Part shown: positions 15,996-35,952 of the stretch, one piece after another
Position numbering within the stretch: position 1 is the stretch's first letter
Layout: each line of letters begins with the position of its first letter
DNA from: Amphiscolops sp. MND2022
Taxonomy: Eukaryota
NCBI GenBank assembly: GCA_964187785.1
Contig: OZ076409.1
Span: forward strand, 67,210,001-67,270,000
Length of the DNA stretch: 60,000 nucleotides
Direction of reading: 5' to 3'
Translations under genes and position numbers: made by a program
The notes under the pieces: model-generated
What the model was told of the DNA's origin: nothing
What the model saw: only the letters and a program-made list of their open reading frames with translations
Databases searched by the model: none

Positions 15996-16917
15996 TGTAA
16001 CGGCTGCTTGCCCTTATCCTGCGCTGAGGCTTGACAAGCTTTACGCCGCCCTGATCCGTTGCTTAGTGCTGTGGACCGTCACTAAACAATTCCTGGTTTT
16101 CTTGTTTAAAGGACTGTATCTTTTGGCTTGATGGGTCCGATGTGACCCGTGGAATCTCCTGCGATCCCGCTTTTCACTGAATTGGATCCGATGTGATCCT
16201 GCACACACTTCCCTCACAGTATCTTCACGCGCTCCGGCTCTCCAATTATGAGAGTAGCTACTTAGTCGCTCTGACTCTAGCGAAAAGTTGTGAAGATTGA
16301 GAAGTTGATTAATTAGTCTCCCGGTCCTGAGACCCAACTTGACTATAGCTATTCAGTGGAGAAAATCTCTATCTAATAATGGTATACATATGGTTTACAA
16401 TTCTACAGTAAATATAAGCAAATATCAGTTGAAATATGTGGTATAAATAAATGACATTTAAGTGAATTATTAAAGTTATTGGCTATGTAAACAGAGAATG
16501 TGGTGGTTTTGGCATGTTGGTCAGGTGGGCTCAGAAGCATGTTTACACTATGTAAATATCATCAATTGCAACAGAGCTGCATTCTAATGTGGTCAGAAGG
16601 GTAAATAGCAATGTTTACATTTTTGTCTCAATGACCTTGAATACTCCACATGTGAGAGGTAATGGGGGTTATAATGGGGGAATGACCTTGAAACTTAGCC
16701 GGTGTGTCCGTATTATGTACTTGCATATGTGTGCCAAGTTTCAAGTCTCTATGGTTAATAGTTGTAGAGAAAATCCCGACTGGGGGGGGGTTTTTCGATT
16801 TAGCAAGGTGAGGATTTCGTTCAAATTTTCATCTAAGTTTCGAAGAGTTAAGTTCTTGTTTCTCAACCAGCATGTTCCAAATCGACTTCTTCTTCCTTCT
16901 GATGACTGGCGCCAACA
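15996..16917 (-). repeat. 3' LTR of the BEL/Pao element (922 bp)
   Basis: Direct repeat of 21062-21982 with roughly 8 differences seen by eye. Confidence 0.95.
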
Positions 16918-19900
16918 TTGCCGGCCCTGTTTTTCTCCCGAAAAACACTTTCGTAGAACATGGGTGCCAGTTTCACTACTGGTCTTTTGAGTTTGTCATC
17001 GATTGTCGTTGTCGTTTTGAGATCTCCAGGTTCATTGTCATGTTTGACGGTTAATTGCCCTGTTCTTTCTCTGCTGCAACAAAATCCCAAACCATATGCC
17101 TGTTCGCTGACCATAAGGTAGTTTTCGGCAAGTTCACATAACACATCCAAATATTTCCAAAAACAGTTTTGCTCATTTGAAGTCGTGGTTTTCCCAATTA
17201 TTACAAACTTCATCGTCAACGTCTGACATTCTTCGTGTTCAATCAATTGCTTTCTTTTAGAACCTTTAAAAGGTATGATACAACCATGCTTCATTTCATT
17301 TGACTTAGCTCCCATCGACATCCAAAGAATATGTTCCCAGAATAAGTCGAGAACATCTCCAGCCAGTTTCCCAATACCTGCTTTGCTTCGCAATTCATCA
17401 TCAAAATTGACTGACCGCGGGGGAGATATGTCAAACTGATTTCATTCTCTAATATTTCCATAATCTTGATCTGGATCTGCAGTTCTTGAAATGTACTTGA
17501 ATCAACAATTATCATAATTAGTAGATAAAGAGAATTTCCAACATTACGACAGTTGAAGTTCTCCCGTTTGTTTTCGGTGTTCTTTGTGCATCTAAAGAAA
17601 AATTTGCGTTCGGAACTTAGTTGCTGCGCTTCATTTTGCTTCTTCCCTTCTGACACGTCGTATTCCGTGTCTACATCCATGTTTTCTTCCAATAACTGCA
17701 ATGCTTTGGAGTTTCGCTTTCGCTTGTGTTTGTAGAACGTCACCCAGCTTCTCTCACCACAAAACTCCAACTTCTTAGCGTCTGGGTTTCTACGAGGCTC
17801 CACTAGATCATAGGAAACTTCCAATTTTCCAAAAGTCCCATTCTGAGTCCACATTGTCTTGAATGGTGCAGCCGGCCCTTTGCAAGACCCACCGCTCCAA
17901 CTTTCTGTTGTTGGTACTTCCAATGAACACATTTGCGTTCTTGTCACTGATGATTTGTCTATCGGATCAAACCAAACTGTGTCCTTTTGTATTCCATTCT
18001 CGTTCAACTGAGTTCCTTCCGTCATTCCATGAATCAGGTTTGAGAGGGGTTCAATTTTCCAAGCTCTTTTCTTCGGTCGCTTGCGGTGACCTTTGCTCAA
18101 TTGAGTTTCAACAATCCCGTTAGCCTGTGCCACCGCATCCATCCCAGAGTTCCCATTTCCAATCCAAAGGTTCCAAACATTATTCTTACTCGGGATAGTT
18201 TCTTCTACAAGGCTTACTTTGAAGTCAAAATCAAATTTCTTTCCAAAGGTTGCAATCATGGTACGTGTTTCACCTTTGGCAATGCATTCAACGGGTTTGT
18301 CATGTTTCGCTGCAACATGGCATAGCTTTCGATACATTGCTTCTTCACTACAATCATCAAGCAGTGCAAATTGTTGCTCATGCACAAATCCATAACTTTT
18401 GTCGAATTCAAAGCATTTGTTTCCTTCTTCAAGAAGTAGAGTACTGTCATGAAACATCGTCACTTCGAATATGTTCCCTTGTTGTATGTCCTGTTGTACG
18501 GTGAAAACTTCTGCACTCTCTTGCAGCAGCTCCAATTTCACATTCAATTCTTCCGAAGATTGTTTGCTTGATGCGAATGATAAGAATCTATGCTCCTTCC
18601 TTGTTTCCGTCATTGTGTGATTCAATATCTCCTTTGTTTGACTTATCGAATGCTCACTCATGCCCAAGTGAATATCTTCTTCCAAAACCTGTTTGGTATC
18701 CACGAGGAGGGTTTCTGAACGGACGTCTTGCCGACCGTTGTCTACAATGAATGTTTCTGACAATTTCTGTATACATTCCGTTGTGATGAGCTGCGAGGTT
18801 CCTTGGTTTGCAAGTTTCACGTCTGGTTGTGATATTGCTTCTTTTCTGCACGTTCCGTCATCAGCTTGCTCATCGGCTTCTGTTGGAGATTTTGAGTCTC
18901 TCCTAAGCGCGGAGAATTTTCCTTCGTGAACTAATTTCACTGCATTCTCTGATTTCAAATGAACTGATAGTGCAATATTGGACTTAGCGCCGTCTTCGAC
19001 TGTTTCTGTCTCAGCCATGCATCTTGAGTCTTCCGTGAAACTGTCGACTGATGAGACACTTGGGAAGCTAGTCCCCTGACTGCTCGACACTTCCGCTATT
19101 TCTCTTTCTTTTTCAGCTATTCTGGCTTTGCGGGCAAGCTGTTCATGCAAGTCAGCTATTTCCATTTGTATTGCTTCACGCTTCAGTTTCTCGAGTCGGG
19201 TTTGCAGTTCTTATTGCTCTTTCTGAGCTTTTACTTTCAAATAAAGTACTCGTCTAGCAATTGAACTTTTCGAAATCACTGAGCTTCTGTTGCTTCCGGT
19301 TTCAACCAGTTTTGGATGTTTGCCCAGTTCCTCTATTTCCAATTGTCCAGTCTCGCTTCTTTGGCCTTGGACTTCATCCGATTTCTGATCTTCCGCTTTC
19401 TCTAATGCTAGAGGAAACAGTCGATCTCCATTAGACCACTTCGTGCTAACTGTTGGCCTGTTGTCTATCAGGATTGTTACGTCAGACACCTTACTGTTTT
19501 CTTCGAGTAGTGATGTCACATCGTTGATTGAGTTTTCCACTTCAGATATGCTGTCTCTCATACCACAGCAACTTTCTTGTTCCTTGGTCTTTCTTGACCG
19601 TGTCAGTGATTCCTTTTCACTAGCTGTTTCTTTTACACAATTAGGTTTTGCCTGATGGACACGTCTTTGCCTCAACTTTCTTGTGCGAGGGCATCTCATA
19701 GCTGCGTCTGCAGATGTTCCATTTGTCATCTGACTCAGTTTCAACTCTTTTGTCCCATCAATTGGACACTTCAACATTTGCTGCACATCGGGGAACCAAT
19801 ATCCCCAACTCGATTCCAGTTTCGCAAAGCATTCGTCCCATTCAGTCACACTTCGACTGAGCTGTCTTTGCGTTTCTTCATTTGTAAGACTCAACATAAA

Positions 19901-20314
19901 GTCTACACAGAACAGCAACGCCTGTCTTCTCTCGCGGTATTCAATTACCCGATCAATCAATTTGCTTTTGGATACAACAGCTCCTTCCTCATCGAGCTTG
20001 TCATCCAAGTCTTTTACCAATGTATGGAGCTTTTCCACATGTAGGGGTACAATATCCCAATAGAGGCACCACGCGTACCAATCTGACGCATTTTCCAAAT
20101 CTTTCGGTCTGAGCTCCATCAGTTGTTGGCTCTGCTTTGTGTTTCTTCCTTCAAACACAATTGCCATTCGAGGGTGCTGCATCAGTTGCTTTTCTTTCTT
20201 TTTGGCTTTCATTTGTTCATATGACTCTTTTGTTTCACTGAGGGCTTTCGAACTTCGCAATTGTTTCTTGTAGGCTTTTTCACTTATCCCAACTTTGCAA
20301 TTTCTCAGATACAA
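16863..20314 (-). pseudogene. Highly diverged BEL/Pao-derived polyprotein (gag-like coiled coil plus pol remnants)
   Basis: ORFs 19211-20314 and 17291-19165 are in the same frame, separated by one TAA; one frameshift leads to 16863-17393. No RT YxDD or integrase core recognisable. Confidence 0.7.
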
Positions 20315-20559
20315 AGTGTCAACTGCTCAATCCGGTAATCAATCGCCAATTCTTGAAGAGTCAACCCAATACTGTCGATTATACTTCCCTTCTTTGACGA
20401 ACTTGATTTTTTCAGTGGATCGTGTCCCTCTGACTTGATCCCTTTGCTTTACTTGGTGGATTTACTTGCAATGACGTCTTAGACCAGATCTTTGCTTCAA
20501 TCAGGAATACGTTCCCAAAGAATACAATTCGTCTCAAAACTAGAATTGATGCACAAATA

Positions 20560-20880
20560 CCTCCAGAGTGCTGCTAAAGCCCAACTCCCAGAGTACACAA
20601 TAGCCCCAACTCCAGAGTCACTATAGTCCAAACACCCAGAGTCACAATAGCCCAAGCTCACAGAGTCACAGTAGCCCAATCTCCCAGAGACACAGTAACC
20701 CAATCTCCCAGAGACACAGTAGCCCAATCTCTCAGAGACACAGTAGCCCAAAATCCCAGAGACACAGTAGCCCAATCTCTCAGAGACACAGTAGCCCAAT
20801 CTCCCAGAGACACAAAAGAACAATCTCCCAGAGACACAGTAGCCCAATCTCCAAGAGACACAAAGTCAGAGACTCCAAGA
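20560..20880. repeat. 24-bp minisatellite (CCCAATCTCCCAGAGACACAGTAG), about 12 copies, in the BEL leader
   Basis: Tandem units directly visible. Confidence 0.9.
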
Positions 20881-20943
20881 ATCAGACACTTGTTCTTTCT
20901 GGGCAATTTTCTCTGTTGTACACCAACGAGTCGTCTTCTTCTA

Positions 20944-21059
20944 GTCCGGGTCGTCCACCAACGAGTTGTCCGGGTCGTCCACCAACGAGTTGTCCGGGTC
21001 GGCGGACCAACGAGTTGTCCGGGTCGGCGGACCAACTAGTTGTCCGGGTCGGCGGACCA
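20944..21059 (-). promoter_or_regulatory. Tandem array of five primer-binding-site units
   Basis: 3x TGGTCCGCCGACCCGGAC and 2x TGGTGGACGACCCGGAC, separated by AACT(C/A)GT, starting 2 nt from the 5' LTR. Confidence 0.8.
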
Positions 21060-21061
21060 AA

Positions 21062-21982
21062 TGTAACGACTGCTTGCCCTTATCCTGCGCTGAGGCTTGA
21101 CAAGCTTTACGCCGCCCTGATCCGTTGCTTAGTGCTGTGGACCGTCACTAAACAATTCCTGGTTTTCTTGTTTAAAGGACTGTATCTTTTGGCTTGATGG
21201 GTCCGATGTGACCCGTGGAATCTCCTGCGATCCCGCTTTTCACTGAATTGGATCCGATGTGATCCTGCACACACTTCCCTCACAGTATCTTCACGCGCTC
21301 CGGCTCTCCAATTATGAGAGTAGCTACTTAGTCGCTCTGACTCTAGCGAAAAGTTGTGAAGATTGAGAAGTTGATTAATTAGTCTCGCGGTCCTGAGACC
21401 CAACTTGACTATAGCTATTCAGTGGAGAAAATCTCTATCTAATAATGGTATACATATGGTTTACAATTCTACAGTAAATATAAGCAAATATCAGTTGAAA
21501 TATGTGGTATAAATAAATGACATTTAAGTGAATTATTAAAGTTATTGGCTATGCAAACAGAGAATGTGGTGGTTTTGGCATGTTGGTCAGGTGGGCTCAG
21601 AAGCATGTTTACACTATGTAAATATCATCAATTGCAACAGAGCTGCATTCTAATGTGGTCAGAAGGGTAAATAGCAATGTTTACATTTTTGTCTCAATGA
21701 CCTTGAATACTCCACATGTGAGGGGTAATGGGGGTTATAATGGGGGAATGACCTTGAAACTTAGCCGGTGTGTCCGTATTATGTACTTGCATATGTGTGC
21801 CAAGTTTCAAGTCTCTATGGTTAATAGTTGTAGAGAAAATCCCGACTGGGGGGGTTTTTTCGATTTAGCAAGGTGAGGTTTTCGTTCAAATTTTCATCTA
21901 AGTTTCGAAGAGTTAAGTTCTTGTTTCTCTACCAGCATGTTCCAAATCGACTTCTTCTTCCTTCTGATGACTGGCGCCAACA
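21062..21982 (-). repeat. 5' LTR of the BEL/Pao element (921 bp)
   Basis: Direct repeat of 15996-16917; adjacent PBS. Confidence 0.95.
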
Positions 21983-22185: not shown

Positions 22186-22385
22186 NNNNNNNNNNNNNNN
22201 NNNNNNNNNNNNNNNNNNNNNNNNNNNNNNNNNNNNNNNNNNNNNNNNNNNNNNNNNNNNNNNNNNNNNNNNNNNNNNNNNNNNNNNNNNNNNNNNNNNN
22301 NNNNNNNNNNNNNNNNNNNNNNNNNNNNNNNNNNNNNNNNNNNNNNNNNNNNNNNNNNNNNNNNNNNNNNNNNNNNNNNNNNNNN
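22186..22385. other. Assembly gap (200 N)
   Basis: Run of N. Confidence 1.
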
Positions 22386-23425
22386 ATGGTTTTGCTTCAC
22401 ATTTTCCCGGTCTTTCGTTTCCCGCATCATGTTTCGTTGACTAAACTTTCCAAGATGTTCTTTGATATAGACCGCCTTCCGCTTTGTTGACCGACGATCA
22501 ACTTCAGCTTGCCTAAGTCGGCAAAGAACCTTCAAGGACTTCGTCTAGTGTTTATCTCCACTTGATATCCACTTGAGAATTTCAAGAGAGGGTGATGAAG
22601 CTTTAAGGCCACGCGCGGCGCATCGCCGCGACAGCCAATGGGAATCGCCCACTCCGTCCGCTTTCCAAAATGGCGGAATTAAAAATAATAATCCAAATAA
22701 GGAAATAATAAAATAACTAAAAATAATGAAATAACTAAAGTAATAAAATAATGAAAATGCATGTTTCGAAATATAACTAATGTGGATTTCTCTGGCAGAT
22801 TCCATCCACAAAATAATTCTCATAATTGTAAAAATATTTGACATCAAATCCAGTTTGCCACGAACTCCAACTTTGCTACTGCAACAGCAATCATTTTCAA
22901 TTCTTCAATTGTCAATTCGTTACATTACTTACATTCGTATTTATCCATTGTTTGTCTAGTATAGCACTTTGTTTACTTTTCCTTTCGTCTTCTCATAACC
23001 CACTAGTGAATCTTCATTTCCATTATCCCTCTTCACGGGCTGTTGGCCTGACGCCGTATTGGTCCCAATCTTCCGCTCTGCCTGGAATCCAACTTCTCCT
23101 GTTCAGTAGGACCATTCCGGGAAGAGTCCTTCACGTCCCCACGATTTGCACCAGCAGTGTGACTGACCGATTTTAGTTGATCACGATTCCCTTCAACCCT
23201 TTGACTACTATCAACAGGTTTCCGTAGGTAAGCTATCTGGTCTTTTCTTTTGAACGGAAATGAGCTTGATCAGGGCTCTTCCTCTCGTTCATTGACTTCC
23301 TGTTTCCTTTATAGATTTTCAACACTTCGTGTTCATATTTCACTTCCGGAAGATTTTAACTGCGGTTATTCTAAGATTCATTGCCAGGAAGGTTACCGCA
23401 AAATTTCAGTCCTTTCTGTTTAGAC

Positions 23426-26400
23426 ATGTCAAGTCAGAAGGATTTGCCAGAACCCACTTTACCTCAAGCCCCAGTTCGTAGTAATCCAGAGAGGGAGCAC
23501 GAAAGTACTGAAACAACAGTTGTGTCAACTGACCGTAACCGGCCTTCACCTGATGATTCTCACAGTAGCAGATCCACGGACGAAAGCGTTTCTGCCTTCA
23601 TTGAAAAAACTGCAACTTCCTTGGCGCTTCTCGAGACTGAGACGATTGCGACTTTCCAGCCTACATCAGAATCAGTTGCTGTTGCGCGAACAACGGATTT
23701 AACTTTCCACAAAGTATCCATTTCCGAGCCTATAGCTGTTCTCCAGGATCCCTTAGAAGACCGACCTGGGACATCCGTCCGAGCTGGACCAGTTAGTGGA
23801 AACAAGGCAAAACCCTTGTATGTTGACACTAGTGATGCCGAAGATCTGTTTGACAGTTCCGGAGTTGAAGCCTTCCCCGCCATCCCGGCTAAGTTGACCA
23901 TTGACCCCAAGGCATTCCCAGATTTCGAAGGTGACTTCCACAGTGAGTCTGGTCAAAGTGACGCTGAGCAGGCACAATACCGGGCAAAACTTCTGACCGA
24001 GGATAGACAATTATCTGGGAAAGGGAAAGCTACTATAAAGAAGTATTTCCAAGAAGTTCGGCCCATCAAACTACCGGTTGGTCATCCAACTATAGCTCTT
24101 AATGCCGATGAAATGCATGCTATTCTAAGGACGATAGCCGATGAATCAGTTTTGTCCTCCTACCATATGATGAAGTCTCTTCTCCTCCATGCTACACAAG
24201 GGGTCTCAAGGGACAAGCGCAAAGGCCTTCCTCGGCGATGTGCCACACCTGCCAGAGGTTTCTCCGAAAGTTCAGGGCATGAGACCAACCCGAGTGGGGA
24301 TACTACCGACGGCTATACCAGCGGCGCCATCAACTCGGACGAAGATCCTTATAACCTTGGTTCAATATCGGGAACTGAAACTGCCATTGAAGTTGATCCC
24401 CTTTTCGCAGTGGGAACAGCCGAAGGATACTCTGGGGCTTTGGACCAGTCTGGGAGCCGTACTCCCGCATCAGGAAGTGGATACAGTCCCACTGATTATC
24501 AGCCATTGTCCGTCCTCAGACGCGGAGGGAAATCTGCCGACAACAAAATGAGTCCGCCACGTAAACGTCGGAAGCTCATGAGTAAGCCAGGGAAAGTAAT
24601 GAAGGATGCCTACTTCAAAGGTATCCAATGGACAAGAACCTTTGTTACTGGACCGCTTGATCCCGTCCATAATAAATATAAGTTTTATTGCATGCTCTGC
24701 AAGACTAATGTGTCCATTTACTCCAAGGGGGCTCGTGAAATCCTGAGGCATTACAAAACTGAGGGTCATCTACGGAGAGACCAGAAGTGGAGGTTCATAC
24801 ACCTGCAAGAAACTGATTCAACCTCAGGATTAGTCACTCACCAGGTTAGAGGAAAAGACGGCTACGTCCTTACACCATTGGAGTTAGAAAGAGAGAAGCC
24901 ACATTTCATTGACGCTCCATTAGTTGATGCTGGGGACCACTTTCCCTTTTACGAAGAGTATCTGGCCAGCTTGGGTGGGATCACTAATCCGGACGATTTG
25001 AGGCTCACAACCTTAATCTCTCTCATTGGGTCATTCGTGCCATACGATGGAAACTTGACCTTACTTCAGAGTTTGTGGACCAGAGGTGGCTCATTCACGA
25101 ATCATCAAGCCCTCTTCTCATCGTTCGATTGGAGCTCAGCTAGTCTTACCGTAAGTTATTCTCCAACATAGCCTTCCTTCTTTTGTGTCTCACTTGGCAA
25201 TAGTAGTTCCATGTTTCAAGTGTATGCAAGTGTTTTGGTTCATTTCAGAAAATCTTTCATCACGTCTTCACACGCGGACTCGAGGACATTGCACAGCACG
25301 TCACTTCGACTAACATGTATTCGATCGAGTTCACGACCCAAGGTAGATCTCGCTGCATGTCCGTTAGATTTTGGAAAGGAGACTCTCTCGTCCGAGTCGA
25401 GCTTCACCGCCACGACTTGCTTGAGTCCACCCCTGGTAGCTATTTGGGTGCGATTTCATTCCTTCTCTCCTTCATATCTTCCAAACCCAATTTGGTCAGC
25501 ATCTCTGGTTGCACGTCGATGGTATTTCAAGCTTTAGAGTCATCTGGTTTATTTGACTACGGGATCCAGTACCCATTCAGATTCGACGTCTTTTCCTTAC
25601 GCAAGCTCATGCAACCTAGTGTCCTAGAGTCTTGCTACGTCTTTGGACCAGTAGACATCTTCGCCCAACTCACCTTCCTGGTTGCCTTCCTGAACGGTTG
25701 TACTGATCAACCATGGGCCCTTCAGTGTCCAGAACTCATCAAGGTTTGTTTTTGTTGGTTTCTATCCCTGGTTCATTACTTCTATTTCATAAATCCCCTA
25801 GGATCCCGCGTCATGACGGCCTACAGTCCTATGTTAATTGAGTCTTTTTGTTGTAGGCAGTTACTAAATGCAACCTGGATTTCAAGAGAATCCCCACTTT
25901 GTGCTCAGAACTTGTCAAGTACTGGCCGTCCATCAATGAGTATATGACTAAGATGGCTCCTACACAGCTGATGCAGGGAGTTAAGAACAAGGTAATATGC
26001 TCTGACTTTCTCTTAGGGTTCCACTTAATAAGTCGTGATAGACTACTATCCTTTTCGGGTAATCTGGCTTCGTTATTGGTCCCCTACATGAATCTATCAT
26101 TTCTTTTAGCCTCAGAGTCTGGAGTGGGCCATCATAATGGACGATCTGTTTACCGCCAAACTTGAATTCTTGTCGATTCTCGTCCGAGATTGTGAGTCGT
26201 CTTCTTTTACTTTCGCTTGTTTTTGACCGTATTTCCTAAAGACGTTCTTCAGATCTGCAACTAGGGCAGCCTACGTTGTCACAAGGTATCGCAATCCTCA
26301 TCCTAAATCTCACTGATTGGTTGTGATGTTTAGATCTAAAATGCTTCGACCGCAGTCGGTCCAACCGACGGGATTCTACCCTTTTCATCTTTGGGCAGTA

Positions 26401-27493
26401 CTGTCGTTTCGTAAGAAAATTGTGTTCTCGCGCCGTCTTGCCAAAATGTACCCCCGAGGATACTAACTGGACCGGGCTGCTACACCTCTGTCCTGACGAC
26501 CTCAGGCTGTTGTCCACTCGCGATTTTGGTAGCCGGCTCAAGTTTGACACTGATCTTGACGCAGTTTGCCGCTCCAAGGTCCGCCGGTCATATTTTGATA
26601 AGAAAACTGGCCCCCCAAACCTGGAAGAGCTAGTTGCAGCCGAGAAAGAAGGGTTCTTGGTGAAGGCCCGCACTTACGTCGTGTCCTTGTTGGAAACCAT
26701 GCTGCGTGATATCCATTTTACTGCCGATATCATTCATGGAATGGGTTGCTTCGATCCACACTTGTTACTATCTTTACCTCTGGACCAAGTTACCTTCTGT
26801 TTCAATGCACTTTTCAACAGTTTCCGACTCCGAGGATGGGTTGCTGAGAGTGCTATGCAAGATTATAGAGACGAGTACTTTGAATTTGTCGATCATTTCC
26901 GGAAAACCTATTCTGGTATTAAGGACGCTCCCGCTACCATTCCTGATGTTCTCGCACTTCTCACTCCTATGCCAGCCCTCCGGAGTCGTATTAATTTGTT
27001 TCATTTATACCGTTTATGCTGTCTCTGTATAACCGAGAGCCATCAGGATCTTCCAGCAATTAAATTCCAGGATGTGGATACTTCAGGCGATCATTGTCGT
27101 TTGTCAAGTGTTATACTGCCCGCACAGTCTTACTTGGCCACCTGTCCTGGTGCCATTGCCGTTTGTACCTCTGAGTCTGCTTTAGTCAAGTACAAAGAAT
27201 TGGACTTGCAATTTACTTCGGGGCAGTTATCTGGGGACCCGTGGTCTCACGTGGACGTCTTTGGCCGGGCTTCCCTTTTGAAAACATTGACTGATTCTTT
27301 CATAAGTCTCAAGGGAGTCCCTCTAGTGGGTGTTTCCACTCCGTCACGAGCTTCCTCTGTATCAACTTCTGCTGGGAAAAAACTCAATTGGGCTGCTGGA
27401 AAAGCGCAAAAATTAGCATTTTTCGGCGATATTCCTCAGAGCGAGATTTCAAAGACGGTGAAGGAGCTGCGTCAAGGGTCATCTAAAGACTAA
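23426..27493 (+). CDS. Spliced gene, ~1198 aa: low-complexity N-terminus, C2H2/BED-like zinc finger, degenerate hAT-transposase-like body
   Basis: Exons 23426-25150, 25249-25743, 25857-25991, 26110-26191, 26334-27493, joined by GT-AG introns of 98, 113, 118 and 142 nt. Phases 0,0,0,1 keep one stop-free frame of 3597 nt. Motif FYCMLCKTNVSIYSKGAREILRHYKTEGH; basic NLS-like PPRKRRK; AATAAA at 27636-27646. Confidence 0.85.
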
Positions 27494-27635
27494 ATGTACA
27501 TAGGGTACATTTGTTATTTTAGACTTTCAATTTGTATATTTGTTTCGTAGTAGTTTTCTGTTTGTATATTTATGCAGTTAGTCTGTTTTAAAGTAAGTCA
27601 GGAAGGTCCCAGTGAAAAGACATGCCATCTCGGGC

Positions 27636-27646
27636 AATAAAATAAA
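27636..27646 (+). terminator. Overlapping double polyadenylation signal AATAAAATAAA of the antisense gene
   Basis: About 140 nt after the stop at 27493 and 25 nt from the pol stop. Confidence 0.6.
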
Positions 27647-27671: not shown

Positions 27672-30600
27672 CTAGTATCTGTATTCATCAGTATAGTTGG
27701 GGTTGGGGTTAGGTCGAAGGTTGTATTTCCCCCCTCTAGGGCTAGAGTTTTCATCAGTTTTTTCATTTGTTTTTTCATTCGATATTCCGGGCACGGTAAT
27801 ATCATCCCCCTCGTTAAAAGAGTTTTTCTCGCCTTCTAATTCATTTGTGACGTCATTCACGTTCTTTTCTGAACTAGTAGGTGTATTGCCACCATTTTGG
27901 CTATTTCGGCTAGTGGCCGTTCTCGGCCTTCCTGTTTCGCTGCTTTGTTCTTCTCGTGCAGCATTCTCGTTAACGTCATGTTCGTCATGCACTATAGGTG
28001 CGTCTCGGCTAGCGGCCGTACTCGGTCCCGCTTCCTTTTCATTCATTCTGGTTCGTTCATTCAATTCGGTGACGTCATTTGCGTCTCGTGTAATTGTGCC
28101 GTCTCGGCTGTTGGCCGTCCCCGGCCTTACCGCGTTGTCATCAGCGTTGTCATAAATGAGGTAATCACTAGCCGTGACACAAGCATCGCTGTCTGGTGTT
28201 TGCGATTCTTCGTCCGTATTATCGTCTCGTCTCGGCTCGAAGAAATGGTAGTCAAAATCTGCTTCCCATGCGATGGTGTATAAATCATCTTGCGGTATGA
28301 TTATTTCATCATCTGGTTGCAATTTCTCTTTGGCATATTTGTCCTCTAAAGACGTGTTAGGAACAAATTTTTTCAGGCGGATTCGGTGTAATATCTGTGT
28401 TTTATTCGTATTTAACCGGCGGACAATGTAATTGTCGTTAGGTAATACCTTTTCAATTCGACAAGGACCGATCCAGCGATATTCTCTGAATGGTATTTTT
28501 GATCCTTGATTGTCCGCTTTAGGTTGTAGGATAAAGCAAAACTCTTGTTCACTGAGAGGAGCTGCTTTGGCCTTTCGGTCATAGTACTCCTTATATTTCA
28601 AGTAGGACTGCATAATGTTATGCTTCGTTTTGTCAATGAGAACTTTCGTTCTCTGTTGTAATTCTTCAGCAAATTCAGTAGTCGGAAGGAAATCCTTATT
28701 AGGATTATTTCCAAGTTTATGATCAAGAACATTATAGGGAATTCTTCCGTGAAAGACCTTGCTCGGTTCACAACCAATGCTGGAATGATAAGTTGTGTTA
28801 TAATTGAGCACTGCTAGTGGCAAATATTTGTGCCATTGACGGCGATATTCCCCTGAGGCCATTTTCAAATTTGTTTTCAATGAGGCGTGAGTTCTCTCGA
28901 GTTTGCCAATTGTTTGTGGATGTTTAGTCGTCGCACATTTTAGGGTTATTCCCAATACTTGCGTTATCTCTGCAATAATTTTTGATGTAAAAGCGGTTCC
29001 TTTGTCGGTGATGATCGTAGTTGGCAAATATGAGTGCTTTGTCATGATGTCTATTAAGACCTTTGCCGTGTTAGAGGCTGTTGCCTCAACTAGCGGGTAG
29101 GCAAACAGATAACTTGAAAAGACATCTATTGCTGTCATCACTGTTTGGTAACCTCCGCTTGTTGGCAAGTTTGGGAGTAAATCGATTTGCATTGCGTGCT
29201 CTGGTCCAAGGTCCCATTCTGGCAAGTTAAGCAATTCGGGCGTTATCGTGTTGTTTGGGACCCGTTTATCTTTTGCGCAAGTTACACATCCTTCTACCCA
29301 TTTTTTAACGTGTTTTGCTATACCGGGGTAGTAGTATTTCTGTCGTATTTCTTGTAACATTTTCGATATGCCAGGATGTTTGTGCGCCGTTCCATGTAAG
29401 GCTTGTAACAATTCTCTCAAAAGGTGTTTTGGTAAGAGAACCTGGTGATACCTGACTTGTCCGGTTTCATCATAGTATTGTCGTGTGACTATTTCGTCTT
29501 TAAGGACTATTCGGTCCAAGTTGTTAAGGTAGTGTTTGTATCGGATATCTTGCTTGAGTAGTTCTTCAGAATAGTCTTCGTTCTGAATTTTGGCTTTGAG
29601 TTGGCGCAGTATAGGGTCCTTGGATTGTTCAAGTAAGATTTGATTCGTTCTGCGCAATTTTTGGGTAAAGTTTGTAATCTCATCTACTATGTTTTCAGAT
29701 ATTGCGTCAATTTGAATAACGCCTTCTTGGTCGATTGGGTTAGTTCGGCTTTGTTTTTTACGCTCCCAAATTTGAGCTTCTGTCTCATCATCTTGCTCCG
29801 TGAAGAAAACCTGTTCCTCTTCAGCAACGCCTGCCGATTGGACATTGACCTCGATGGGCTTAGTCTCTATGTCTTCGCGGATTTTAAGGACTAGTTTCTC
29901 TCTGGGGTCCATTTCCATGCGAGATAAGTAGGCGGCGGCTGTGTTGTTTTTCCCTGGTATTTGTGCTATGGCAAAATTGAATTGTATTACATAGTCACAT
30001 GCATTCCAGAGTGTTGGAGGGATTATCTTCGTCTGGAAGAATCTCGTGACCGATTTGTTGTCCGTGAGGATGGTAATCGGTTTAGGGGCTCCCCAGAAAA
30101 TATGTCCAAATTCTTTGAATGCGTAGTAAATCGCTAAGAATTCCTTGGCGTATATGGACATTTTGAGTTGCGATGGCGTAAACGTTTTTGAGCCATATGC
30201 AATTGGAGCGTATGATTTTTTGACAGATGAATATTTCTGGTTTGGGTCGTCCTCGGTAAGTATGGCGTAGCCGGCCGCTGTGAAACTAGCGTCTGTCATC
30301 AGGACCAGTTGCTTGTTTGGCAAAGGTTGCTTCAGGGCCAATTGGCTACATTTGTCGAGGTCCCGATTGATTTCATTGAACTGTTGTATTAGTTCTGTGG
30401 TCACCAGGACTTTTTCGTCTTTTTTGAGAAGTTGAAAGAAAGGAGCTAATTTTTCAGATAATCTTGGGATATAGTTCCTGTAATAATTTAGGAAACCAAG
30501 ATATCTTTGTAGAGCCTTTTTAGATTTGGGAAATTTGGTTTTTTCTAGGAAGTTTGTTATTCGCTCCTTTTGTGGTTTGACTCCCTCCGGAGTAATTGTT

Positions 30601-32909
30601 CTCCCCAAGAAATTGATTTCCGTTGCCCCGAAGTGGCATTTGTGCATTGTCAGTTTAAGGCCAGCATGCCTAATGCACTCAAAGGTTGCTTTCAAATTTT
30701 TTATGAGATGATCCGCATCATTGGCGGCTGTGCCAATGTCGTCGACATATTGGGCACATTGATCAGCTTTGATAACTTTATCGAGATATTCCCTCATAAA
30801 ACTTGAAAATGCTGATAATGCCCTGCTAAGGCCCTGGGCAAGTCGTCTATACGCAAAGGTGCGGCTTGCAAAGTTGAACGCAAGCATCTCAACGGACTTT
30901 TGGTCCGCCATTGGTAGGCAGTGATATGCTGGTGAACAGTCGAGTTTACAGAATAGTTTCTTTCCTGCCATATGTTGTGCAGCGTCCGTTAGGGTACTAA
31001 CCGGATGATTGTTGTTTATATAGTCATCCGAAATGAGGTTATTAATTTTCCTCAGGTCGACTAGTAGTCTTAGCTTCCCATTCGGCTTTTTCTGCGCGAA
31101 TATGGGACTGGCGTATTTCGAAAATGGCAGTGTTGTTATTATGCCATATTTGTGTAAGAGGGCCAGTTCGACGAGTATGTCCTCTTTTAAATTGACTGGA
31201 GTTGGAAGACTTTGGCTGTAAGCAGGCGAATCGTCCTTAGGGGTCAGTTTGACCGTGAATTCTTCATTCATTCCGATGTCAAATCTGTGTCGTGCGAATA
31301 TGTCATGGTATTCGACTAAAAGCGATTCGATCTTTTTGATTTCGTGTTGTTGCAGCATGGAGTCTTTCCAGTCGAAATTGCCAAGGAATTTGCGGCGTGA
31401 CTCATCATCATTCTGAGGATTCAATTGTTCAGCTTCTTGGAGGTTTCGTAATTCTTGAAGGATTCGTCGTTGGATGGGAGTATGGGAATCTTCGTCCCCT
31501 GGGTTTTCTGGCGTAGGAAACCAGTACTGTTCATATTGGTCATTGTTCCTATTAGCCTTGAGTAGACTACTGACATAGTAGATCGCATCCTCTTCATTTT
31601 CATTGAGGAGATGCCATGTGGACACCGGGTCAATTGGTTTGACGTGTTTCATCTGTTCCGGTGTTAGTACAGAAAAGTTTGCTATGTGTAGTCCCTTTTT
31701 AAGCTTGTACGGTTGGTCTGTGAAATTGTTGATATGAACGTTAACGTTTCCATTAGTCAATGTGACTATTGCGGCACAGAATGTGATGTCGCCTTCTTCA
31801 TGGAGGCGATCACTGGGTTGCAACACACCTGTGACCGTGTTTTCATTGTAGATTTGGGATTTGATCTCTACTAAGGTACGGTCATTGGGTGGTATTGTGA
31901 TGTCGTCTGGGTTAAGTATTGGTTCCAGTACGTTGGAGTATTCATGGTCAGCCGTTTTGAGTTGCATCGAGAAATATGGGAAATTGAGTATGCCTTGTCG
32001 CATGTCCAGTACTGTATGATTCCTCTGGAGGAACATTAATCCTATGATAGGGCCAGTCAGCTTTTCCATTACTATAAATATTTCGTGGAATTCGATATCT
32101 CCGACTTCGAACTTGAGTTCAACAGTGCTCTTTGGGGTTTCCAATTGTCCGTTTGCGACCATAATTTAGAACGTCGGGACAGGTCCCTCTTTGACTATGG
32201 ATTGGGGCGCCAATAGGCGTATTTTCCTGAGGTCTGCTTCCGGAATTGCGCTGGAGTGAGCTCCAGTGTCTATGAGGCCGTCTATGGTTAGTTCCCCAAA
32301 GTCCATCGGGAAATATAACATCCGTTTTTTGTATTTGAGTCCGAGGTTTGTGGATAATGGTATGTACGCTGGTTCTCCCTCTTTAGTTACAAGGACATGT
32401 ATGAAGGCTGTCTCGTCGAGGAGGCCAGGTGTGGCCTGTGTCTCTTCTGCATGTGGCTGATCTTTGATTGCATCAAAATTTGGTTGCCACTGTTCGATAA
32501 GTGCCCGGGACAGTATGGTGTCTACAATGTCAGGGTCATCCTCATCGTCTGTTGGCGGGTAGTCGTCATTCCGAAATTGTAAATTGTGTTTATCGTATAA
32601 ATCATCATCCCAGTACGGGTCTTTGCAGTACTCGGGGTCGTAGTATTGGGGGTTGTAGTCGTCGACAGTTTGTAAGGGTCGGAATTGGGTTTCTGAGTCT
32701 TTAGTAAGGTTATTACGTCGATATAGGTATGGGTGGTCACTGTGAATAATATATTGAGTTTGAATACAGGCTTCCACCATCTGCTGCTGCCAGACAGTCG
32801 ATGGGGTCCCTGTGATGTTCTCTTGTGATTGCTTATAAGCGATGTTAGCTGGGTCAGATATGACATATTGTCGTATCGACATTTGGTCAGAGATTTGGAG
32901 TCGTGGCAA
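27672..32909 (-). CDS. pol: Gypsy pol polyprotein (protease, RT, RNase H, integrase) with one premature stop at 32166-32168
   Basis: LIDTGA; LRLLVDLRKIN, KLDC, YVDD; LMTDAS..KEFLAI..TDNKS; H..H..CVTC, QIDL, ITDKG, GKLERTH; GP.RI. Confidence 0.95.
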
Positions 32910-32911
32910 AA

Positions 32912-34611
32912 TTAGTTTTTTGATTCCGGTTTTTTGGAGTTCGATTGGCCTGATGAGGATGTTGTAGATTTTTCATTCTTGGTGCGATTGCCTTCGTCTT
33001 CAGAGGGCTCCGTGTCTTTGGAGGAGTCTTGTCTATTTCTTTTTGGACGGAGATGGGCACCAGCGCCACGCCAACATTTCTCTGCTGGGTGATTGGTTTT
33101 GCTGCAGGTGGGACATTCTGGATAAGTTTGTCGTTGAGGCTTCTTGCCGTCTTTGGCCTCTGATTCTTTCTTCTTTTTCAGTTTTGGACAATTTTTCCAG
33201 AAGTGGTCCTCTGCCTTGCAGTATGAGCATTGGTTATTTTTGTTGGTGTCAATGCCATTAGATAGTAAATTTCGGGATTTGTTGGACGACGAAGCCATTG
33301 TAGCAATGGGTAGGTCATCAGATTCTTCTAATGCGTTTAACTCGAGTTCCCGTTCCAGATGTGCCACAATCTCTTCGTAGGTCCCGTTTTCCAGTCGAAC
33401 CATATTGACTGATTTGAGTTTTGGGGGGTAATTTAGCATACAGGAGACTGTCGATCATGCTTTTGGCGTTTTCCCCAAAGGCCTTCTCGGCCCTGGTTGA
33501 GTTCCTCAAGAAAATCGGGTAGTTTCATCGTGTTGGGATCAAAAATGAGCCGATGCCACTTATGTTTAGCTGTGGCTTGAGACTCGGGTTTGACGTACTT
33601 TCTGCGGAATATGACCAATACGTCCTCTAATGTTTGACGGTTTATGGATTTTATATTTCGGAAAGTTTGCAGGGCTCCTTTTCGGAGCAATGAATGAAAA
33701 TGATTTATTTTCATTTGTTCCGTCATAGCGGGCTGCATCTTTATCATTGTATGAAATAAATCTTCAAACAATTCGAATTTCTCTGCTTTGCCGTCAAATG
33801 TCATGGGGTTCGTCGTGACTGGTCTGATAGTCATCGACTGTGGTTTGTTTTGGTGGTTTACCAGGACATCAGCTAATCGGTTGATAGGGTCCAATGGCTG
33901 TTCTGCCGGAACGGGCTCTGTTATTGCCAGAGTTGTATCCAGAGTTGTATCATGAGTGGATTCTTGTCTTTGGAGGTCTGGCTGAGAGTGAATTCGTCCT
34001 GTGAGGAATTCAGGAATCGGCTGTTGGAGTTCGTTAGCTCCTGTCACCATGTAAGGACTAACGTCCGAATGTTCTCTCAGGTCACAAGCGGACCTTGAGT
34101 CCTTCTTTGTCAATCTTGTATTTGTGTTCTCCCATGCGCTTCTGACTCCATCCTCATTTAAGGACGTATCCGGTCCAACGCCATTTTGACCCAAAGGCAA
34201 GTTTTCAACCATATTTTGTATTTCCGGAATAATTCTCTCGCTTATAGCAGAACTAATGGTTCTGGTAATTTGTGATTGCATTAGGTCCATCATAGCCTCC
34301 ATCTCGCGTGACATCCTAGCGTTCACTTCACTAGATAGCGTATTGATAGACTCAATTAGCCTACTTTCTCTAACTGGTTCATTTCTACTATCAATGTCTC
34401 TGATCTCATTTTCTTGAGATGAGTTTTCTCTATTTGGAAAAGACTGAAAGTCTCGTTGTTACTCAGGGACGTTAATCAAGCTATCGAGTTCTCTTTCTAT
34501 AGAGTTGGAACTTCTTCCACCTAGCATCACGTCCATGTTGCCGTAGTCGGACAACATATCTAATTCTCTGGATTTTCTAGACTTGGCCTTTTGTCTCCTC
34601 GTGGAAGGCAT
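32912..34611 (-). pseudogene. gag: Gypsy gag (one stop, two frameshifts) with two CCHC knuckles
   Basis: MPSTRRQKAK...; FDGKAEKFELFEDLF; CSYCKAEDHFWKNC and CPTCSKTNHPAEKC; ends at slippery A AAA AAC TAA. Confidence 0.85.
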
Positions 34612-34923
34612 TGAAAACATTATTCCAGGAGAAAATATTTGAATTGTTCCTGTGGACAAGTATTTCTATTTTCAGATTAATCAAAATGAGCGTAGTGTAT
34701 CAGGTAGCTGCAAAATTATGATTAACCTTTGTCAGGCCGACTTGGGTATATATGCCCCAGAGGGCATGACAGGCAAAATTGTAACGGTCATGATACTAAA
34801 AATAGCAACGCAAACTAAAAATAGATACACTGAAACTATTAATAGCAACATGACATCATTTTAGACTTGTGCGGGCGGCTAGATCAAAGGTCCCGACAAG
34901 TCTCATCCACATATGGGTCAAAT

Positions 34924-35555
34924 TGTTTACAAGTATAATTCATGCAAGCAACAGTGTACATGCACAACAATTCATGAAGGCCCTATTCGACGTATGGCCG
35001 TTGGGGTTTTCTAATTCAGTTCCATCATAATATGAGAAAGCAACAATTACATGTTAACAGTGTATATGTCTGTTTATTGCATGGGGTGGGTTATTTGCAT
35101 CTTCAAACCACTAATTAACTGGAATACCAATTTCATATGGCAGGTATACAGCATTTGAGTATTCATCGTGCCAACCGGCCATGATAGGCCTTATTTACTG
35201 CATAGCACCAAGACAATTAATACAGTGAATAGGGACGGCTATGTTACATAGCCGCTTTCGTCCTATTTGTAATTACTGAATACCAATCAAGTATAGCATC
35301 AAAGCACAATAAGGCCGGCAATGTTAGTTGGCCGCTTTGGTCCATTCTAAATAGTTATTAGCACAGTTACGTAATAAGTAATAAGATGGCTATTACAAAC
35401 TGCACTCTGATTGGCCAATTGACCGTAGGCGGCTTAGCTAGCCATACTGAGCAGGCAAACATTTGAACACGTTTCCTTTCTGCCTGTCAGTATGGCTTGC
35501 TGTCAAATGTATTTTACATCAGAAATAGCAATACAATTCATTAATTAATATTACA
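34924..35555 (-). repeat. Putative 5' LTR of the Gypsy element
   Basis: Minus strand begins TGTAAT and ends AAACA; contains CCAAT (~35410) and a minus-strand AATAAA (~35073); PBS-like sequence follows. Partner LTR not in the window. Confidence 0.55.
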
Positions 35556-35952
35556 TGTTCAAAATAATACTAAATGTTTGAAAGTTTTGGTTTACAATGG
35601 GAGCGTCCCAGGTAGGGCGATTGGCTTCGTATGGTCAATCGTGTAAATGTTGCCATCGCAGGCGGCAGCCTGCGACAATATCGTAAAGAGTTCTTTCTAT
35701 AATTTCGAATTATCTGTGATCGAATTGTATAGTGGCACGTCGCTCTCCTTCGCTTTGCTCCTGTATTTAGGGCACTAAATGCTTGATGCATAATTGGAAA
35801 AATTTTACTCGAAAATTTTACCTCGAAAATGCAGTCACAAAAAATCGATTCTAAATCATATTCTAAACTTTTCAAAAATTGCTTAAAAAATATGCAAAAG
35901 GGACTTTTTAGAGGTATATTATCATCGTAAAGTCATCGAACACGTGTGATAC

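Follow-up and report, generated by a model that had tools for sequence, protein, structure and literature searches.

Plant long terminal repeat (LTR) retrotransposons of the Gypsy group, including maize Grande with its gene23, rice RIRE2 and Retand with its TRP28 ('transposase 28') domain, carry antisense open reading frames (aORFs) that, in the retrieved parts of PMC7264820 and PMC11963269, are conserved, occur in nearly all copies and probably encode nuclear DNA-binding proteins, that of Grande having its own promoter. Here, we describe a gene of the same place and orientation, hereafter the cargo gene, in a Gypsy element of Amphiscolops sp. MND2022, following up an earlier note made from the sequence alone on a 60,000-nt stretch of contig OZ076409.1 (the window; G000:C1:67210001-67270000). 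Transposases are known to have been tamed by hosts, and in this element one has apparently been tamed by a mobile element of another class. On balance, we lean toward the view that a whole clade of Gypsy elements 15-16 kb in size has the cargo gene as a fixed component and that its product is a dead hAT-transposase derivative with which the element regulates its own copies by binding DNA in the nucleus.

The cargo gene fits the class aORF-3R, an antisense ORF between pol and the 3′ LTR, as defined in the retrieved part of PMC7264820, and shares with the plant aORFs its conservation, its presence in nearly all copies and a probably nuclear, DNA-binding product. By contrast, the plant aORFs are described as plain ORFs (the word 'intron' occurs 0 times in the retrieved text of PMC11963269), and their origin is stated to be unknown, with no similarity to other transposable elements, in that of PMC7264820, whereas the cargo gene has four coding introns, encodes ~1200 amino acids with a recognizable predicted hAT fold and lies head to head with a sense frame, ORF3. 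No Pfam match to TRP28 was found in the cargo protein. Another antisense product, HBZ of HTLV-1, is a small bZIP protein. Like the cargo gene, the HBZ gene is a spliced antisense gene in an LTR element, and its transcript is polyadenylated and its product a transcriptional regulator, but it starts in the 3′ LTR of a retrovirus and has one main intron, according to the part of PMC1459196 retrieved, whereas the cargo gene probably has an internal promoter, contains four to five short introns and appears to be transposase-derived. The predicted fold and domain order of the cargo protein (finger, RNase H-like core and helical insertion) are those of Hermes, other hAT transposases and the domesticated ZBED5, FAM200 and GTF2IRD2, but the cargo protein has no conserved DDE or CxxH and no sequence-level match, and it is carried by a retrotransposon rather than by a host gene or a DNA transposon. 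Planarian Burro and Ogre (PMC6431247), the rotifer ORF3 elements (PMC5408684), the orchid AlkB Gypsy (PMC9289625) and Chlamydomonas Gypsy-7a (PMC9940879) likewise have a Gypsy backbone enlarged by captured domains; no antisense multi-intron gene is described for them in the retrieved portions of these papers, and 'intron' and 'transposase' occur 0 times in that of PMC5408684. Antisense extra ORFs are thus already known, but the full-text searches turned up neither a multi-intron, transposase-derived one nor any case in which several conserved introns go together with a class II transposase fold, fixation throughout a clade, losses of introns and the exchange of cassettes.

In the window, the exons proposed in the earlier note were reproduced as a plus-strand gene of five exons with 1198 codons and no internal stop. 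Exon 1 (23426-25150) encodes a long, variable, acidic and low-complexity N-terminus, followed by a nuclear localization signal (NLS)-like patch, PPRKRRK (24554-24574), a C2H2 finger (24680-24769) and the most conserved domain of the protein. Exon 2 (25249-25743) encodes a predicted RNase H-like core of the hAT-transposase type without conserved catalytic aspartates, and exon 5 (26334-27493) encodes the predicted helical insertion domain and the C-terminal part of the hAT-like fold, with the short exons 3 (25857-25991, 135 nt) and 4 (26110-26191, 82 nt) between them. The four introns measure 98, 113, 118 and 142 nt, and all are GT-AG and keep the frame, as claimed. The likely 5′ untranslated region (UTR) intron at 23228-23314 (87 nt) is also GT-AG, with the donor kept in 9 of 10 close copies and the acceptor likewise in 9 of 10. 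The suggested polyadenylation signal fared less well: an AATAAA is present at 27636, near the pol stop codon (27672-27674), but an AATAAA within 330 nt of the cargo stop occurs in only 1 of 15 other gene models, so the signal is doubtful. The intactness of the cargo gene beside broken gag and pol, to which the earlier note had drawn attention, is true of the window copy and is a trait of that copy: in all nine of its close relatives, the cargo is interrupted by stops or frameshifts.

Across the genome, the cargo gene occupied one position within the element. When exon 1 was searched against the DNA, 40 of 548 candidates were returned as scored matches, and in 20-kb regions fetched around 32 copies picked by cargo, with families ranging from 99% to ~30% identity in protein, the gene lay antisense at the 3′ end of pol in every one. 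Both LTRs and the primer-binding site could be parsed in 26 of these copies (the other six being interrupted, rearranged or unparsed), 23 of which had a perfect 5-bp target-site duplication (TSD). To avoid selection by cargo, we also picked loci by integrase, taking the 30 best matches and eight lower ones, down to 86% identity; all 38 carried the antisense cargo gene (six of them repeat the window or earlier copies), which bears out the proposed location between pol and the 3′ LTR and rules out Gypsy copies with the LTR directly after pol among these loci. Two protein searches returned 146 and 106 scored loci, and because the two sets are disjoint, the cargo family has at least 252 distinct scored loci, both counts being lower bounds; a single-copy host gene is thereby ruled out. 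The fixed position inside LTRs with 5-bp TSDs speaks against an independent hAT insertion and against independent mobility of the cargo; no inverted repeats of at least 40 nt flank the gene, shorter ones not having been searched for. Two long-branch exon-5 homologues (P0063 and P0096), whose best match in the Amphiscolops genome is at most 31%, suggest that the cargo family exists in another genome.

Comparative evidence indicates that the cargo introns are real. We attempted 24 gene models and dropped three, leaving 21 (19 automatic and two set by hand), with GT-AG boundaries imposed by the search but none of the other regularities that follow. Intron positions coincided across the 21 models, including families only 30-35% identical in protein: exon 3 was 135 nt in 19 of 19 automatic models, exon 4 was 82 nt in 18 of 19 and exon 2 was 486 or 495 nt in 17 of 19. 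The introns were 63-193 nt long and fell in all three phases (32/28/21); GT[AGT]AG donors marked 58 of the 81 modelled introns as against 115 of 3703 exonic GT dinucleotides, only two of the 81 could be read through, and downstream of intron 1 the frame stayed open over 610 codons or more in 17 of the 21 models. Introns have also been lost precisely, which provides the strongest check on the models. One lineage has no intron 4, exons 4 and 5 being fused exactly at the predicted junction, and 5 of 30 loci of this lineage (98-100% alike), a young subfamily, also lack intron 2, with exons 2 and 3 fused just as precisely, while sisters at 90% identity to these loci retain it; the intron-less junctions thus coincide exactly with the predicted splice sites. 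Such loss could stem from gene conversion by a cDNA copy of spliced mRNA, or the AG/G microhomology could have allowed a precise deletion. The premise that introns survive reverse transcription only when antisense was too strict, as sense introns persist in Ogre and EVADE elements (retrieved part of PMC12786077).

The transposase ancestry proposed earlier is supported by predicted structure and not by sequence. We predicted the folds of two separately modelled parts of the cargo protein, and Hermes was the top Foldseek match, with both parts aligning collinearly (153-265 and 368-609) at modest scores and with the predicted architecture of an RNase H-like core split by a helical insertion domain. 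At the sequence level, no match of the cargo to hAT transposases was found, and the C-terminal hAT dimerization domain PF05699 had no Pfam match in 83 homologues, with an Atlas lead at 0.83 only. No catalytic DDE acid was conserved at the predicted strand-1, strand-4 or late positions in 16 models, the register being taken from the general hAT motifs rather than from a residue-level structural alignment, and the CxxH motif after the second Asp was absent from the alignments. Other acids are invariant (E602, D711, E758, D796, D812, D953, D999 and D1017). The finger, CxxC..H.x5.H with invariant C422, H442 and H448, had no Pfam match to zf-BED and gave only weak C2H2 matches below the cut-off; its region is the most conserved part of the protein, and the basic NLS-like patch precedes it in all families shown. 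Together, the models suggest that the cargo protein is likely a catalytically dead derivative of a hAT transposase. Several unrelated hAT transposase frames with recognizable catalytic motifs (L163-L168; 597-685 codons, one of 314) occur in the genome, none of which is the cargo donor.

In full copies, the sense ORF3 of ~280-290 codons lies between the 5′ end of the cargo gene and the 3′ LTR and runs over the polypurine tract (PPT) into U3 (for example L055:2959-3828, minus strand, with homologues in full copies); in the window, it falls in the gap at 22186-22385. It gave no database match and carries a CxxC and an acidic hydrophobic motif, which we take to be like a SUMO-interacting motif (SIM). 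Among 31 sequences, peptide conservation starts at a codon that is ATT in 24, ATA in five, ATC in one and ACT in one, almost always Ile; AAA stands before it in 28 of 31 and AAG in none, and a G comes next. An ATG first appears 6-13 codons downstream, at a position that varies by family, and 29 of 31 lack an upstream in-frame ATG, pointing to a likely non-AUG start. The spacer between the head-to-head cargo gene and ORF3, at 22386-23227 in the window, holds the same position in full copies and is the putative internal promoter region.

The cargo gene is under purifying selection. The ratio of nonsynonymous to synonymous substitution (dN/dS) across copies, a comparison proposed in the earlier note, was 0.04, 0.05, 0.07 and 0.10 for exons 2-5 in the four unsaturated pairs of 25, the remainder having saturated dS. 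Every measurable dN/dS was at most 0.17, save for one reverse transcriptase (RT) pair (0.32) involving a frameshifted copy, and measurable pairs gave no sign of positive selection on the cargo, whose protein evolves several times faster than RT or integrase. The cargo also passes from one element backbone to another as a complete cassette. Where two elements share 92-99% identity in pol, identity over the full length of the cargo gene can be 50-72%, the edges of the exchanged block lying near the cargo 5′ region and the cargo stop, and integrase segments 96-99% identical carry cargo types that are 42-100% identical. A second block, U3 with ORF3, swaps independently of the cargo. As pol itself is mosaic, these patterns reflect a recombining population of old lineages and are not proof of balancing selection.

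For the origin of this arrangement, we propose that a hAT DNA transposon landed in reverse orientation in the 3′ region of an ancestral element, its ends and catalytic residues then disappearing while its DNA-binding scaffold was kept. An internal promoter would drive the cargo, arranged back to back with ORF3, and the cargo's own mRNA would be spliced, whereas the genomic RNA would read the introns backwards and unspliceable, so that reverse transcription would copy them into each new insertion. We consider these steps, taken jointly, highly probable. Less secure, and in our judgment slightly short of an even prospect, is the proposal that the cargo protein binds DNA through its zinc-finger region, dimerizes and keeps the element transcribed or sets its level; that the cargo product acts as a nuclear regulator of the element's own transcription is about evenly balanced. 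Grande gene23 is a precedent for a nuclear antisense accessory protein with its own promoter (retrieved part of PMC7264820). More tentatively still, the clade may have domesticated a DNA-transposon transposase as a spliced antisense transcription factor, forming with the non-AUG, SIM-like ORF3 a head-to-head unit whose parts are exchanged as old allelic cassettes; if true, this would combine a class II-to-class I domestication with a control circuit like that of complex retroviruses in a Gypsy element.

Regulation has to be weighed against other roles that a DNA-binding cargo might have. It might serve integration instead, binding cDNA ends or integrase and carrying or tethering the pre-integration complex to chromatin, given that end binding is the ancestral task of hAT proteins, that the opening bases of the LTR hardly differ between families, that the finger region is the most conserved part and that the protein has an NLS-like patch. 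However, no common sequence is obvious among the 23 TSDs, ORF3 coding and integrase place constraints of their own on the conserved LTR start, and the range of cargo types on near-identical integrase segments speaks against tight pairing, making this role unlikely in our view. The possibility that the protein is still an enzyme, a nuclease or recombinase remodelled so that its active site has moved and acting on element DNA, draws on the strong purifying selection over a whole transposase-length fold and on the invariant acids; with strand 4 ending without an acid in 16 of 16 models, none conserved in the late helix and insertions flanked by ordinary 5-bp integrase TSDs, we consider it very improbable.

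The cargo, working with ORF3, might instead be a counter-defence factor or decoy against host chromatin or silencing proteins, and the many old cassette types would then persist because rare ones escape host defence. The cargo and U3-ORF3 blocks swap whole and are far more divergent than pol, and the acidic motif of ORF3 resembles a SIM. Anti-silencing proteins encoded by transposable elements are exemplified by VANC (retrieved part of PMC13547354). Yet the dN/dS values given above show no sign of positive selection, pol is likewise mosaic with saturated dS, so that old alleles are not special to the cargo, and cargo and ORF3 assort independently; such a role is rather unlikely. Passive hitch-hiking without function, by a DNA transposon or host gene that became nested only recently, would explain why many single copies, including all nine close ones, are broken. 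It is at odds with a site that does not change from family to family, with low dN beside saturated dS, with the conservation of splice sites and with frames that are open in most models; the dN/dS and universal presence of the cargo have already refuted this account, which we give almost no weight. We retain nuclear regulation of the element as the favored function. PMC7264820, in its retrieved part, leaves open the origin and role of antisense ORFs in LTR elements, for which the cargo offers a recognizable ancestor and testable biochemistry. An LTR element can evidently spread a full multi-exon gene intact, and the four introns, copied through reverse transcription in hundreds of insertions, with two precise losses that can be placed on young, datable copies, form a natural test bed for intron evolution.

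The element in the window measures ~15.8 kb, in line with the >13 kb first estimated, and full copies measure 15.4-16.5 kb with LTRs of ~1.63 kb; it does not reach the 20-kb limit for giant elements in the retrieved part of PMC6431247, so the label 'giant' given to it does not apply by that limit. None of the repeats elsewhere in the window matches it. The 5′ LTR (34050-35677, minus strand, 1628 nt, TG..CA) is longer than the 34924-35555 proposed at first and is repeated at both ends of full copies, in which LTR-LTR identity is 96.5-100%. As had been suspected, the 3′ LTR of the window copy falls in the assembly gap, where 200 N (22186-22385) replace ~2.5 kb that in full copies comprise ORF3, the PPT and the 3′ LTR. 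Pol (27672-32924, minus strand, one internal stop in the window copy) has Pfam domains in the Gypsy order protease-RT-RNase H-integrase, and a dUTPase-like segment (~31670-31910, minus strand, Pfam E 3.8e-5) lies between protease and RT. Gag (32912-34611, minus strand, ~567 codons), located by tblastn with the gag of another copy and broken in the window, has a weak Pfam match to DUF1759 below the cut-off; compared with another copy, window gag/pol has one frameshift and a few stops. The first ~187 gag codons (34050-34611) are encoded within the inner ~560 nt of the LTR, and therefore a 5′ piece of gag recurs in every 3′ LTR, with the primer-binding site located within the gag frame. This site (34038-34049, minus strand), next to the 5′ LTR, pairs over 12 nt with the 3′ terminus, CCA included, of a tRNA that contains an intron, is encoded in the same genome and is, we infer, of Leu type. 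The matching intron-containing tRNA genes form a large tandem array with a period of ~296 nt (G000:C8 from 35595871, L170), and the tRNA-gene pattern has 769 matches genome-wide.

Copies of the window's group have a short G-rich PPT before the 3′ LTR. Of 12 distant copies, 7 (among L071-L082 and L085-L086) lack this tract or have an unusual one, although their LTRs are young (at least 99%). A young 13.6-kb type (L063-L064, G000:C1:7322746-7342745; LTRs 99.9%) has lost most of gag and the protease region and keeps an open cargo gene and ORF3; about a dozen exon-5 matches in the protein search look like it. At the cargo 5′ end, an 18-residue leader (23372-23425) upstream of the ATG chosen in the earlier note is conserved in most other families, and its frame is closed in the window and in eight copies of the window's subfamily where readable. 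At the other end, ~180 nt from the stop of minus-strand pol, the cargo stop codon is followed by a short palindromic hairpin with TGTAC arms (27491-27513, plus strand), predicted in most of 17 models with arms that differ between families; we take the arms to resemble UGUA/Pumilio-type sites on both strands. Within the gene, the cargo strand has fewer AATAAA than expected (five observed versus 13.6 expected). Elsewhere in the window, a separate LTR-bounded element (15996-21982) has ~1 kb repeats that are 98-100% identical, minus-strand frames of 639 and 371 codons with no Pfam match, and a 24-nt tandem array at 20565-20900.
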